This document shows positions 23,595 through 27,057 of a stretch of 64,000 nucleotides of DNA, one piece after another; position 1 is the stretch's first letter; each line of letters begins with the position of its first letter. The position numbers and the translations under genes were made by a program. Below the pieces are notes generated by a model, which saw only the letters and a list, made by a program, of their open reading frames with translations, made no database searches and was not told the DNA's origin. Location of the stretch: assembly GCF_025370845.1 (NCBI RefSeq), contig NZ_JAMXFF010000042.1. One strand, 5' to 3'. The stretch is from Laspinema palackyanum D2a (lineage in GTDB: Bacteria > Cyanobacteriota > Cyanobacteriia > Cyanobacteriales > Laspinemataceae).

Positions 23595-23925
23595 GTTTTG
23601 AATATTCTCTAGGCAGAGAATAGGTGATTGGATAGTTCTACTATAAACAAGGATTTCCGGGATGAAGTGATCTGGATCGAGCGATCGCCAGGGGAGAAAT
23701 CACCCTAGAGGGATGACGGCGATCGCTTGACTCCGAATGGCTACAATTACCCTCACATTTTGATCGGAGATAAAAGAATAGGATTAAGTATTTTTAACTA
23801 GGCTGATTGCCAGAGATGAAGTGGAAACATCACAGTCTTCAGTTCACGGAAAGGAAAATGTGATTTTGCCGATCAGAACGGGTACAATCCTCGAAGGGGT
23901 ATTTTATTGTTTAGCCTCGCCACTA

Positions 23926-24990
23926 ATGAAATGTATGATCGTTGAGTTACTTCTCCTCGGGATTTTATTTCCCCTTGATGTCGCCCAAGCGGGCGAGGTA
24001 GAACCCTGGCAAGCCGAGGGGTTCGGGGACAATCTGGAATTATCTGCTGATGCTGCCCCTCTGGGGCCTCTATTGTTCCCACCCATTCAGGGCGATCGCA
24101 CTGAGGTTGAGGTCCTTTTTCCCGAACCGGATGCCTGGGAGGGGACAGTTCCCCACCAAGGTGAGATTGCCCAAGAAGACCCCGCCACAGCACCGGAGGA
24201 AACGACCCCCCGCTCAGGGACTCCCTTACATCGGGGGATTCCCGGGGAACAACCGTTCATGCCCCAACGCATCCCGTTTCGCCCGCGCACGGATATTACC
24301 ACTCAAAGCAAACCCTACGTTGCTTCTCCGGGGATTACGGTGATGACCCCCTCGGGCTATGGTGCCGGTTGGGGAAGTGCGGGATTTGGGTTGGGTTTAC
24401 AGGAACGAACTCGGTTTACAGATAGCAGCGATGGGGTTGCCGGATTCGGCATCGGATTTGGAAATCCTCGGGACAATATTGGCTTAACCGTGGGTGTAAC
24501 GGTGACGGATTTATGGGGTGATGCCTTCGAGGATGGCAGCGTTAGCTTAAAATTGCATCGGCAATTGCCGAACGATTTTGGCATTGCGGCAGGGATACAG
24601 GGAGCTCTCACTTGGGGGGAAACCGATGGGGGGACCTCTGGGTATGGCGTGGTGACGAAACGCTTCGTTTTAGATGAACCCGAGAACCTTTGGAGCCAAG
24701 TGTATGTGACCCTGGGGGTCGGAGGTGGACAGTACCGATCAGAGTCGGATATCGAGGCGGGAGAGGGGACTGTGGGACTGTTTGGATCCGTGGCTTTGCG
24801 GGTTGCACCTCCCGTCAGTGCGATCGCAGAATGGACGGGTCAGGACCTCACTTTGGGGGTGTCCGTTGTGCCGTTCCGGAATATTCCCTTGGTGATTTCT
24901 CCCGCGATTACGGACATAACTGGAAGTGCGGGAGATGGCACTCGGTTTATTCTGGGGATTGGTTATGGTTTGACCTTCGATCGGTTGTAG
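23926..24990 (+). CDS. Hypothetical secreted glycine-rich protein with alternating-hydrophobic strands, possibly an outer-membrane beta-barrel
   Basis: Signal-peptide-like MKCMIVELLLLGILFPLDVAQA. Gly/Thr/Val-rich alternating pattern, ending ...GIGYGLTFDRL. Start is chosen at the internal ATG at 23926; the ORF opens at 23821. Confidence 0.4.
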   Translation: MKCMIVELLLLGILFPLDVAQAGEVEPWQAEGFGDNLELSADAAPLGPLLFPPIQGDRTEVEVLFPEPDAWEGTVPHQGEIAQEDPATAPEETTPRSGTPLHRGIPGEQPFMPQRIPFRPRTDITTQSKPYVASPGITVMTPSGYGAGWGSAGFGLGLQERTRFTDSSDGVAGFGIGFGNPRDNIGLTVGVTVTDLWGDAFEDGSVSLKLHRQLPNDFGIAAGIQGALTWGETDGGTSGYGVVTKRFVLDEPENLWSQVYVTLGVGGGQYRSESDIEAGEGTVGLFGSVALRVAPPVSAIAEWTGQDLTLGVSVVPFRNIPLVISPAITDITGSAGDGTRFILGIGYGLTFDRL

Positions 24991-25020
24991 TACAGGCTTA
25001 TTTATAGAAGGATTCTCACA

Positions 25021-27057
25021 ATGAAACTGTTTAAGGGATGGATGAAATTGTTTCTGGCTATGACATTGGTGGCGATCGCTGCTGATCCTGCCATCACCCA
25101 GACGGGAAACCAATCCGATGTCAGTGGACCCATACCCACCGAGACGCCACCGGAGGAACCGCTACCGGAAGAACCGCTACCGGAGGAACCGCTACCGGAG
25201 GAACCCCTACCGGAGGAACCGCCAACGCCAACGCCAACGCCAACGCCAACGATCGCACCCACAGGAAGCATCACTCCTCTACCTACTCCCACCGAAACTC
25301 CCACCGAAACTCCCCCAGAAACTCCCGCAGAAACTCCCACCGAAACTCCCACCGAAACTCCCACCGAAACTCCCGCAGAAACTCCCACAGAAACTCCCAC
25401 AGACACACCACCTGGTGATACCCCAGTAATCCCTGTTGACAGTCCAGTGGAAGTGCCGACACCGATTCCCGTTCAAACCCAGGAACCGATTAACATTCAG
25501 TCCCCGGAACCCACGGGCCCGGTTGTCATCCCCGAGAATCCAGAGATTCCCCTTGAGGAGGAAATTCCTCCTCCGGTGAGCGAGAATAATTCAGAACCCG
25601 ACCCCACAAATGAAAGTACCAATTCCATAGAGGATCAGATTCTCGAAGATGCTCCCAGCACAACGGGAGAAGCACAGCCCTTGAGTAGTCTATCGGACCA
25701 AGAAGTTGATCGCCCAGGTTATGAAACTCAGTTAGCTGCGGCCGATATTGGGGTGGCGGTTCAAATGTTGGAAGAATATCAGGCAATGGAGTTTAGTAAT
25801 TATTTAGAAGTGGAGTTATTTGGGGAAACGGCGACTCCCGATGATATTGCTCAAGCTTTGTATGATTTGTGGCAAGCGACAGGTAACAAGAGTTCATTTA
25901 TTTATGTCTCAGCGTTAGCGGACCAATTAGAACTGGTGATGATTTTCCCCCAGAATTTTCGAGTATCGGGGGGCAGTTATGACTTAGTGGCTTCGGCGGA
26001 TTTAGCCCAAGGACTGATTGAGAGAACCACGGATGTAGCGGTTCGCGAAACGGTACCCAATGTCGCGCGCGAACAGCTTCTTGAAGAGGTGCAAAACTTG
26101 CGCTCGGAACTGACTAATCCCCGAAGGCTCAACAGTAAAAGTTACTTACCGATCGCCCAATCACTTTATCAGTCCCTAATTGCTCCAATGGAAGCACAAC
26201 TGGAAGCCAATGGGATTGAAACCTTAGTCTTTTCGATGGATTCTGGCTTACGAACCCTTCCCCTGGTGGCATTGCATGATGGGGAACAGTTTTTATTGGA
26301 AAAATATGCCGTTGCTTTAGTCCCCAGTTTTGGCTTAACTGATGTCACCTATTCCGATATCCGGAACCGAGAAGTATTAGGGATGGGTTCTGCTATTTTT
26401 CAAGACCTCAATCCCCTCCCTGCGGTGCCGACTGAATTGCAAAATATTGTGAGCGATCCCTGGAAAGGAAATGTCTTCCTGAATGAACAGTTCACGGCTG
26501 ATAATTTCCGAAAAATTAACCAGGAAAAACGCTTTGGAATTATCCATTTGGCAACCCATGCAGAATTTCAAGGGGGAAATTTGGATAACTCTTATATCAC
26601 CTTTTTTGATAGCCGAGTCGGACTCAATCAAATTCGAGACTTAGCCACGGAACTCGGGTGGAATACCTCGGAGAATCCTCCCATTGAACTATTAACCCTA
26701 AGTGCCTGTCGGACCGCAGTGGGAGATACAGAGGCTGAGTTAGGATTTGCGGGTTTAGCTGTACTTTCTGGGGCGAAGGCATCTTTAGCGAGTTTCTGGT
26801 ATGTCAGCGATGCCGGAACTCTGGGATTAATGAGTGAATTTTATTCCCAATTAGGGGAAAAGCCACTGAAAGCGGAAGCTTTACGGCAAACCCAACTGGC
26901 GCTGTTAAGGGGAGAGGTTCGCATAGAAGATGGGATGTTAGTTCTCTCCAATGGCAAAACCGTCCCCCTACCCCCGGAATTGGCGGAACAATCAACGATC
27001 AACCTATCTCACCCTTATTATTGGTCTGCGTTTACCCTGATTGGGAACTGGAATTAA
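25021..27057 (+). CDS. CHAT-domain (caspase-like) protease with signal peptide and a long Pro/Glu/Thr low-complexity linker (PEEPL x5, TPTETP x>10)
   Basis: The C-terminal ~300 aa has CHAT hallmarks: ...GIIHLATHAEF... (His) and ...LLTLSACRTAVGD... (Cys). The N-terminus MKLFKGWMKLFLAMTLVAIAA is signal-like. Confidence 0.7.
   Translation: MKLFKGWMKLFLAMTLVAIAADPAITQTGNQSDVSGPIPTETPPEEPLPEEPLPEEPLPEEPLPEEPPTPTPTPTPTIAPTGSITPLPTPTETPTETPPETPAETPTETPTETPTETPAETPTETPTDTPPGDTPVIPVDSPVEVPTPIPVQTQEPINIQSPEPTGPVVIPENPEIPLEEEIPPPVSENNSEPDPTNESTNSIEDQILEDAPSTTGEAQPLSSLSDQEVDRPGYETQLAAADIGVAVQMLEEYQAMEFSNYLEVELFGETATPDDIAQALYDLWQATGNKSSFIYVSALADQLELVMIFPQNFRVSGGSYDLVASADLAQGLIERTTDVAVRETVPNVAREQLLEEVQNLRSELTNPRRLNSKSYLPIAQSLYQSLIAPMEAQLEANGIETLVFSMDSGLRTLPLVALHDGEQFLLEKYAVALVPSFGLTDVTYSDIRNREVLGMGSAIFQDLNPLPAVPTELQNIVSDPWKGNVFLNEQFTADNFRKINQEKRFGIIHLATHAEFQGGNLDNSYITFFDSRVGLNQIRDLATELGWNTSENPPIELLTLSACRTAVGDTEAELGFAGLAVLSGAKASLASFWYVSDAGTLGLMSEFYSQLGEKPLKAEALRQTQLALLRGEVRIEDGMLVLSNGKTVPLPPELAEQSTINLSHPYYWSAFTLIGNWN

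Follow-up and report, generated by a model that had tools for sequence, protein, structure and literature searches.

A β-barrel gene paired with a tagged CHAT protease gene in Laspinema palackyanum D2a: a candidate outer-membrane secretion or anchoring module of cyanobacteria

Two genes for putatively secreted proteins are transcribed divergently from a vault (MVP) gene in Laspinema palackyanum D2a, which raises the question of whether they work with the vault gene, with each other, or with neither. The locus lies within the 64,000 nucleotides of contig NZ_JAMXFF010000042.1 that were analysed (the window), and the coordinates of its features are given in Table 1. An earlier note on this DNA described a signal-peptide-bearing, β-rich protein and a secreted 678-aa CHAT protease with a low-complexity stalk, both divergent from MVP, and this description agrees well with our analysis: both ORFs and the vault families are in place, the first protein is rich in Gly, shows an alternating hydrophobic pattern, and models as a 12-stranded barrel, and the second has a signal peptide, a CHAT domain and an intact dyad. 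What the earlier note missed is that the barrel and protease genes form a conserved pair, linked by a short tag at the N-terminus of the protease.

Table 1. Features of the barrel–CHAT locus and the adjoining vault gene (positions are those of the window)
Feature	Position	Strand	Remarks
MVP gene, divergent	20946-23594	-	Matches Vault and MVP_shoulder families
Alternative barrel start	GTG 23821	+	389-aa version, 35 residues added upstream of annotated start
Barrel protein gene	23926-24990	+	From ORF list; 354 aa; ATG start at 23926 as annotated
Barrel protein signal peptide, predicted	23926-23991	+	MKCMIVELLLLGILFPLDVAQA, cleavage before G; hydrophobic core then A-Q-A site, read from sequence
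Barrel protein N-terminal extension, variable	23992-24219	+	Probably periplasmic
Pre-barrel motif L-H-R...E-x-P-F-x-P-Q-R-x-P, conserved	24220-24285	+	Alignment A1
β-barrel domain, 12 strands (predicted)	24376-24975	+	Residues 151-350; then F-D-R-L
Tagged CHAT protease gene	25021-27057	+	678 aa; starts 30 nt downstream of barrel gene
Protease signal peptide, predicted	25021-25080	+	MKLFKGWMKLFLAMTLVAIA; Lys-containing start, hydrophobic core, A-I-A site, read from sequence
Protease N-terminal tag QTGNQSDVSGP	25099-25131	+	Start of mature chain
Acidic Pro/Thr/Glu stalk	25132-25695	+	Residues 38-225, net charge -40
Tandem DNA repeats encoding stalk	25145-25400	+	Tandem Repeats Finder, scores 64-211
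Protease core, conserved	25696-27054	+	Residues 226-678; N-terminal lobe and Pfam CHAT domain
Catalytic His513 codon, motif HLATH	26557-26559	+	Invariant in 62 orthologues
Catalytic Cys563 codon, motif LSAC	26707-26709	+	Invariant in 62 orthologues

The vault gene appears to be a recent and unrelated arrival beside the barrel–CHAT pair. Adjacency of MVP is limited to the Laspinema clade (nine loci: L001-L007, L168, and L169), and among 80 loci selected by the barrel, MVP is adjacent in seven and absent from the other 73. The sister locus L008 is collinear, with the order c17-c18-barrel-CHAT versus c17-c18-MVP-barrel-CHAT in Laspinema, a pattern that suggests insertion of MVP. A functional unit of MVP, barrel, and CHAT protease, to which the adjacent and divergent arrangement in the window and in the nine Laspinema-clade loci might point, has in our judgement almost no chance of being correct, as it is contradicted by synteny (L008 is one of the 73 loci without MVP) and by MVP itself, which lacks a signal peptide and is a cytoplasmic-type protein. 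The gene trio considered in the earlier note is thus unconserved outside this clade. A preprint on bacterial MVP (10.1101/872010), searched for terms pointing to an analysis of gene neighborhoods, has none of them. A tempting vault lead is hereby removed, leaving the adjoining MVP gene outside the system.

The barrel and CHAT genes appear to form an operon conserved across cyanobacteria. In 62 of the 64 informative loci, namely those with enough downstream DNA, the next gene after the barrel gene is a CHAT gene on the same strand, and the gaps are mostly 9-40 nt. The loci were picked by barrel similarity alone and cover Oscillatoriales, Nostocales, Pleurocapsales, Spirulina, and Prochloron; the barrel was kept with no adjacent CHAT gene in loci L030 and L051. 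Starting from the protease, all three look-ups found a barrel homologue (51-55% identity) located 10-43 nt upstream. A scan of the locus yielded nothing resembling a promoter, and its terminator-like sites showed no excess over shuffled sequence. Since these scans gave no support, the operon claim rests on spacing and conservation. No barrel–CHAT fusion protein was found among the best 150 of 1122 representative clusters, and no description of the pair was found in full-text literature searches on CHAT, barrel, and COP23 themes.

The barrel protein (354 aa) is identical to the annotated MCT7969094.1 of Laspinema sp. D1/D2a and has more than 555 cyanobacterial homologues, within a family that comprises at least 1122 representative clusters, some with SLH domains and some without. 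It has no family match in Pfam or NCBIfam and nothing was retrieved by a PDB sequence search. In the predicted structure, the C-terminal 200 residues form a 12-stranded outer-membrane β-barrel, in which lipid-facing and lumen-facing residues alternate along the strands. The protein shows the hallmarks of an outer-membrane β-barrel, namely a predicted signal peptide, amphipathic strands in even number, and an aromatic signal near the C-terminus; F, W, or Y is the last residue in most orthologues, and the window protein has Phe four residues from its end (F-D-R-L). The putative lumen residues are Gly or polar and are significantly more conserved than the lipid-facing ones, and loops L3, L5, and L6 are almost invariant. 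Conservation is lowest in the N-terminal extension (entropy 2.62 bits), whose topology is fixed as periplasmic by paralogues in which peptidoglycan-binding SLH domains occupy the same position. In the pre-barrel motif that follows, L101, P113, and P117 are invariant in alignment A1 and F111 is nearly so. The fold matches of the barrel model include protein-conducting 12-stranded barrels and small porins alike. One reading of such matches is that the two proteins have independent functions, the barrel serving as a KdgM/NanC-type porin for small solutes and the protease simply sharing its transcript. We consider this improbable because Pfam KdgM gave no match to the barrel protein even at E-values up to 10, leaving only the fold in common, and because co-transcription does not explain the distribution of the protease tag described below.

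The second gene encodes a putative cysteine protease with an intact His/Cys dyad. Pfam CHAT (PF12770) matches residues 377-676 (nt 26149-27048) with E=3e-61 and 207.8 bits against a cut-off of 24, and the predicted structure of the core has the caspase-like fold of the separase/Csx29 type. Neither candidate start of the window protein gives an identical entry in the protein collection. The closest CHAT paralogues share 40-55% identity across the whole core (about 450 residues), and in 37 of 50 complete ORFs these paralogues are carried at the C-termini of TPS-domain exoproteins. Cys563 is the sole cysteine of the window protease, and 42 of 61 orthologues likewise have a single cysteine; the lack of any cysteine beyond the catalytic one is typically seen in passengers that traverse the outer membrane in an unfolded state. 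A metagenome scan with the CHAT core yielded no close relatives and instead retrieved unlinked paralogues, which were used as a negative control. A role in anti-phage defense was also considered and rejected, as the PADLOC defense models gave no genuine match, the single hit (E=3e-4) being a low-complexity artefact.

The feature that ties the protease to the barrel is the N-terminal tag, with the family consensus Q-[ST]-G-N-[QM]-S-D-[IV]-T-G-P-N-P, which essentially all barrel-linked CHAT proteins carry at residues about 27-32 and which is missing from all of 50 unlinked CHAT paralogues. No further tagged ORFs were found in the window or in the barrel-less loci L081-L160. The possibility that the tag is an N-glycosylation sequon (N-x-S) was dropped, since Thr or Arg replaces Asn in some orthologues. 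SLH-fused paralogues of the barrel also have such a neighbor: in seven of seven genomes, the next gene encodes a signal-peptide protein with an AQxxGNxSD start. Six of these partners are unrelated proteins of 190-350 aa, and one is a CHAT protein; the small tagged partners retrieved nothing from Pfam, NCBIfam, or a PDB sequence search. The tag thus seems to go with the barrel family and not with the type of cargo, and its presence on two unrelated cargo types, together with its absence from unlinked paralogues, is what mere co-transcription leaves unexplained. The same partners bear on whether the barrel protein, for example through its N-terminal extension, is a substrate or regulator of the protease in an envelope signaling switch. 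The conserved motif within the extension would suit such a role, as would the presence among the fold matches of DdvA, a signaling protein with an extracytoplasmic CHAT domain. However, the SLH-barrel paralogues have the same kind of tagged partner, though a non-protease one, and proteolysis therefore cannot underlie the pairing; we regard this switch as very improbable.

Between the tag and the core lies the stalk, for which the earlier note described near-pure repeats over the N-terminal 170 residues. True tandem repeats are present but confined to residues 42-127, while residues 128-225 are Pro/Glu-rich and non-repetitive. Tandem Repeats Finder resolved a 15-nt unit encoding PEEPL (x5.2, 25145-25222), a 6-nt unit encoding PT (x5.3, 25220-25251), and a 12-nt unit encoding TPxE (x9.7, 25285-25400); the last corresponds to about 10 tetrapeptide units, rather than the more than 10 copies of TPTETP counted previously. 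The proposal that the tract varies between strains was borne out, with 10, 11, and 12 TPxE units and 5, 5, and 6 PEEPL units in L. palackyanum D2a, D2b, and D2c, respectively. Repeat unit sequence and copy number vary among Laspinema relatives too, and L168 matches the window at 98.4% identity over the locus. As all units (6, 12, and 15 nt) are in frame, slippage would alter stalk length only and would not switch the gene on or off; the locus accordingly shares with contingency loci the copy-number variation between close strains, but not the on/off switching of frame or promoter. Across orthologues, stalk length ranges from 0 to 971 aa (median 120), and the stalk is net negative in 47 of 56; the remaining nine have stalks of 0-7 residues. 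Nostocales and Microcoleus have stalks of 0-10 residues, which indicates that the spacer is dispensable.

Taken together, we propose that the two genes encode a dedicated outer-membrane barrel and its tagged cargo, with the protease probably displayed on the cell surface, and we assign this reading a probability of roughly one half. Both proteins, judging by their signal peptides, would cross the inner membrane via Sec. The first would be a 12-stranded barrel embedded in the outer membrane, its highly conserved lumen lined with Gly and its N-terminal extension lying in the periplasm. The cargo would be the second protein, made up of the tag, an acidic disordered spacer that varies freely in length, and the separase/Csx29-type CHAT protease, and the tag at its mature N-terminus (Q-x-G-N-Q-S-D-x-T-G-P) would couple it to the barrel. 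Upon contact of the tag with the barrel, the unfolded chain may be threaded outward, presumably from N to C, so that the barrel would tether the protease on the cell surface. The resulting topology would be that of an inverse autotransporter split into two polypeptides. This module is supported by the conserved adjacency, the barrel-specific tag, the two predicted folds, the conserved lumen, the exoprotein relatives, and the lone catalytic cysteine. Counted against it are the loci L030 and L051 without CHAT, the lack of a fusion among the clusters searched, the dispensable spacer, and the F-D-R-L end.

On the other hand, the tag may dock on the periplasmic face of the barrel or on its N-terminal extension, leashing the protease in the periplasm, where it would act on envelope proteins. 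Such a tether fits the same pairing and tag data, has in its favor the conserved motif of the periplasmic extension, and needs no energy source for translocation across the outer membrane. However, the nearest paralogues of the core are TPS-type exoproteins, conservation peaks in the lumen and outward loops and not in the periplasmic turns, and stalks of up to 971 aa seem over-long for a periplasmic leash. We therefore find a periplasmic location unlikely, although deserving of serious consideration, and favor surface display of the tagged protease. More tentatively, and with somewhat less than an even chance, the pair may be the founding example of an undescribed cyanobacterial secretion or anchoring system of the outer membrane, in which a barrel recognizes an N-terminal tag (AQxGNxSD..., about 11 residues) carried by the product of the adjacent gene and exports or displays varied cargos, a caspase-like protease being one of them. 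Such a system would amount to type V secretion split over two polypeptides.

To our knowledge, the routes by which cyanobacteria secrete proteins across the outer membrane are poorly mapped. If the surface-display module is real, a small barrel family and a short, portable N-terminal tag would provide a testable route of surface display, and the tag would be a compact targeting signal for engineering. Many filamentous and colonial cyanobacteria would then carry a caspase-like protease on or at their envelope, with a bearing on questions of cell–cell interaction, sheath remodeling, and cell death.

Comparison with known systems helps to place the pair. The CHAT proteases Csx29/TPR-CHAT (Craspase) and separase are cytoplasmic and regulated by bound partners, whereas the window protease has a signal peptide and no TPR region. 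We know of no dedicated tagged partner gene for the KdgM/NanC porins, from which the window barrel differs in its short, highly conserved loops and its periplasmic extension. The PorV-PorU and PorQ-PorZ attachment complexes of the type IX secretion system show no homology to either protein; PorV is a 14-stranded FadL-like barrel, and the type IX system, which is one of Bacteroidota, uses C-terminal domains as its signals. FapF, the trimeric secretion barrel with a plug helix that exports functional amyloid in Pseudomonas, has no sequence similarity to the window barrel and carries an amyloid subunit and not a folded protease. Two-partner secretion (type Vb) likewise has two genes and an N-terminal secretion determinant, and the TpsA-CHAT exoproteins share both the protease core (40-55% identical) and Pro-rich linkers before it. 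However, TpsA cargo carries a TPS domain of ~250 aa and is served by an Omp85-type partner that has 16 strands and POTRA domains. The window CHAT protein lacks the TPS domain, which paralogues in L103 and L104 have, and the barrel paired with it, of about 200 residues and 12 strands, has no POTRA domains, which sets the pair apart from type Vb. Autotransporters, whether inverse (type Ve, intimin/invasin) or classical (type Va, such as NalP, Hbp, and EstA), are single polypeptides and show neither sequence similarity to the pair nor a Pfam match of their families to it. In the window, a stop codon and 30 nt separate two ORFs with their own signal peptides, and the 11-residue N-terminal tag would take the place of the covalent linker.

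The barrel gene and the CHAT gene, which lie between MVP and ureC in the window, are by comparative gene order a conserved pair. Scanning the barrel alignment against one genome per species retrieved 80 loci selected by the barrel alone, and 62 of these have a full-length CHAT-core homologue directly downstream on the same strand. The remaining 18 loci include 16 that stop too early to judge, and the CHAT gene is truly missing downstream of the barrel only at L030 and L051 (62 of 64 informative loci linked). Intergenic gaps are mostly 9–40 nt, and outside the genus the linked cores share 43–57% identity with the window core. 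Carriers of the pair include Oscillatoriales, Nostocales, Pleurocapsales, Spirulina, Prochloron, and Stenomitos. Look-ups from the protease side found a barrel homologue (51–55% identity) 10–43 nt upstream in all three cases (Stanieria PCC 7437, a Halomicronema assembly, and a read-archive contig). Contig L064, labelled Candidatus Gracilibacteria, carries COP23, barrel, and CHAT genes at cyanobacterial-level identity and is probably mis-binned; fragment P0138, labelled Vampirovibrionales, shares 89% identity with the CHAT core of the window, pointing to another binning error of this kind.

Features of the window around the barrel and CHAT genes (nucleotide positions unless marked as residues of the CHAT protease)
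Feature	Position	Strand	Remarks
DDE-type transposase (PF01609)	17435-19201	-	just beyond MVP
Small HTH_37 protein	19426-19674	-	just beyond MVP
MVP	20946-23594	-	Vault and MVP_shoulder families; divergent from barrel gene
Barrel gene	23926-24990	+	ORF, 354 aa
134-aa ORF	25002-25406	opposite to CHAT gene	Gly/Val/Ser repeats
CHAT gene	25021-27057	+	ORF, 678 aa, 30 nt past barrel gene
Signal peptide	residues 1-20		predicted
Tag QTGNQSDVSGP	residues 27-37
Pro/Thr/Glu stalk	residues 38-225		net charge -40
ureC	27319-29052

The barrel protein of the window is identical to MCT7969094.1 (Laspinema sp. D1/D2a) and has no Pfam or NCBIfam match, even at permissive thresholds. It has more than 555 homologues, cyanobacterial wherever a source is named; conservation in the alignment is limited to the C-terminal ~235 residues, and most members end in Phe, Trp, or Tyr. 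An AlphaFold2 model, with 28 sequences as alignment input, has 12 strands at residues 151–350 (pLDDT ~80–90) and low confidence for the N-terminal 140 residues, and on this model the protein is predicted to be a 12-stranded outer-membrane barrel. Hydrophobic alternation was used to decide which strand residues face the lumen and which face lipid; the former are Gly and polar or charged, and are clearly more conserved than the latter (mean entropy 0.74 vs 1.27 bits; 81 orthologues, Mann-Whitney p = 7e-5). Hardly any variation occurs in L3, L5, and L6, which are short loops on the outward side. General porins are not known to look like this, and the conservation pattern suggests a specific job for the barrel interior and outer rim.

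The protease has a conserved core of 453 residues and only one cysteine. The mature chain of barrel-linked proteases opens with Q-[ST]-G-N-[QM]-S-D-[IV]-T-G-P-N-P at residues ~27–32, a tag of which most positions are kept in 44 to 53 of 53 motif-positive sequences ([ST], [QM], and [IV] counted jointly as alternatives); linked proteases outside this pattern have GNQSD with another continuation or mis-called starts. Run against metagenomes, the CHAT core gave 80 paralogues (40–55% identity), none of them next to a barrel, and the tag occurs in none of their 50 complete ORFs. A TPS-type secretion domain begins 37 of these 50 (Pfam-confirmed for two), which are large exoproteins of the two-partner secretion type, and 8 more consist of signal peptide and core only. 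No further ORF combining a signal peptide and the tag was found in the window or in the barrel-less loci L081–L160. In Symploca (L011:10961-11375), the tag and the following PNPVEVIPTQDSE segment occur in ~4 tandem copies, and several Nostocales have two tag-like copies (NQSD...NSDVTGP; N-termini at L017, L018, L037, and L072). The almost invariant barrel loop L6 (24913-24942), T-D-I-T-G-x-A-G-D-G, is similar to the tag core S-D-[IV]-T-G-P (25114-25131), which could be chance or a hint of loop-tag mimicry.

The barrel also occurs with other partners. Searching 1.84 billion representative proteins with a profile gave at least 1122 clusters with the barrel, which is C-terminal, behind N-terminal extensions of 10–620 residues, in every case among the matches listed. 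The long extensions are S-layer-homology (SLH) domains, and because paralogues carry these domains there, the barrel N-terminus is placed in the periplasm. For seven SLH-barrel genes from different genera, the next same-strand gene invariably encodes a signal-peptide protein opening AQ-x-x-(G)N-x-SD. One partner is a CHAT protein (Microcoleus FACHB-672), and the other six are Ala/Ser/Thr-rich, 190–350 residues long, end in ...NPPxELLAIQ, and have no match to a known family; in the Oxynema partner, the tag and the conserved C-terminal region are separated by a Thr/Asp/Pro repeat stalk of its own. Being present on barrel-linked proteins, including non-CHAT partners, and missing from unlinked paralogues and barrel-less loci, the tag follows the barrel rather than the cargo, which is the strongest argument for a tag-barrel interaction. 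A plain porin with an unrelated neighbour is improbable, as it leaves the tag without explanation, and a protease-substrate relation of CHAT and barrel is slightly less probable again, as it does not account for the non-protease partners. Barrel and tagged partner are likely to form a physical module, a weaker claim than surface display; the evidence for the module and its localisation is comparative and predictive throughout.

In 41 loci of Pleurocapsales-type genomes (within L019–L080), the barrel gene is preceded at 50–700 nt by a same-strand COP23-family gene (PF14218, E = 3e-16), giving a COP23-barrel-CHAT arrangement (COP23 genes, e.g., L055:8781-9302 and L170:949-1473); no COP23 gene occurs in the window. 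In Oscillatoria PCC 10802 (L161:3607-12329) and Oxynema (L164:1-2664), SLH-barrel paralogues are surrounded by COP23 genes in alternation with secreted Trypsin_2/TPR serine proteases, and COP23, envelope proteases, and the barrel family may belong to a larger shared neighbourhood. Two further SLH-barrel loci (L165:1-2982 and L167:1-2846) are divergent from Wza/Wzc-type polysaccharide export genes and adjoin ABC-2 or MurJ-type transporter genes, which hints at a tie to cell-surface polysaccharide.

Between tag and core, the stalk acts as a spacer that is free to vary. Its length in orthologues runs from 0 to 971 residues (median 120), and the tandem repeats that build it are lineage-specific. 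Of 56 orthologues measured, 47 have a net negative stalk; in the remaining nine it is 0–7 residues long. Tandem Repeats Finder resolved the repeat tract of the window (25145-25400) into units of 15 nt (x5.2), 6 nt (x5.3), and 12 nt (x9.7). The 134-aa ORF on the opposite strand, which overlaps this tract, was taken as a by-product of the repeats. Laspinema relatives have the 12-nt unit at 9.7–12.8 copies, and their 15-nt unit differs in sequence, differs in number, or is missing; in one sister lineage a 6-nt unit (x36) stands in their place. Copy-number variation between strains, raised as a possibility in the earlier note, was borne out in three strains named L. palackyanum: D2b is 98.4% identical to the window across the locus and differs by one 12-nt unit (682 vs 678 aa), and D2c, which has lost its PT run, counts 12 units of TPxE and 6 of PEEPL. 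Each unit length is divisible by three, so stalk length alone changes and expression is not switched. The Pfam CHAT domain was computed at residues 377–676 of the window protein (E = 3e-61), whereas the 682-aa proteins of D2b (L168:4596-6644) and D2c (L169:4587-6635) have no precomputed Pfam hit; the window protein, with either candidate start, has no entry in a large protein collection. Low-complexity stalks may degrade automatic annotation of the tagged-CHAT family.

The conjectured functional link of MVP to the pair did not hold up. MVP adjoins the barrel gene in only 7 of the 80 barrel-selected loci, all of the Laspinema clade, and likewise in the D2b and D2c loci. The order of neighbouring gene groups in Laspinema loci is c50-c51-c25-c17-c18-MVP-barrel-CHAT-ureC, and the nearest sister locus, L008, reads c50-c51-c25-c17-c18-barrel-CHAT; this locus is collinear without MVP, so that either Laspinema acquired MVP or its sister lineage lost it, with the pair unaffected. 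Judging by gene order, MVP is a bystander. A preprint on bacterial MVP reports the gene in Oscillatoriales (10.1101/872010), and wording on its gene neighbourhood was not found there. The transposase and HTH_37 genes of the window occupy the place of c17/c18, which flank MVP in other Laspinema strains, and this indicates local rearrangement beyond MVP. The short palindrome AACGACTGAAGTCGTT occurs repeatedly downstream of MVP (20658-20848) and makes up a 37-nt tandem array (~5 copies) on the downstream side of ureC (29255-29469), and additional hairpin repeats lie at 29046-29268.

The most economical model, to which we give a probability of roughly 0.5, is that the tag of the cargo would engage the barrel, the chain would then pass outward, and the protease would end up displayed on the surface, held through the barrel. 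The cargo combines an N-terminal tag with a disordered acidic spacer; it contains a single cysteine, and its close paralogues are exported by two-partner secretion. The main rival of surface display, a protease that stays periplasmic and tethered to the barrel, is possible and distinctly less probable. Single cargos served by an outer-membrane barrel of their own are familiar from type V secretion, FapF, and the PorV-PorU complex. For the barrel family, tag, and pairing described here, no Pfam or NCBIfam model was found, nor any description in a full-text literature search on these themes. In size and Gly-lined interior, the barrel resembles the polypeptide-holding or -conducting barrels of autotransporters, intimin, and FapF, and the proposed arrangement would be like that of an inverse autotransporter, but split into two proteins.
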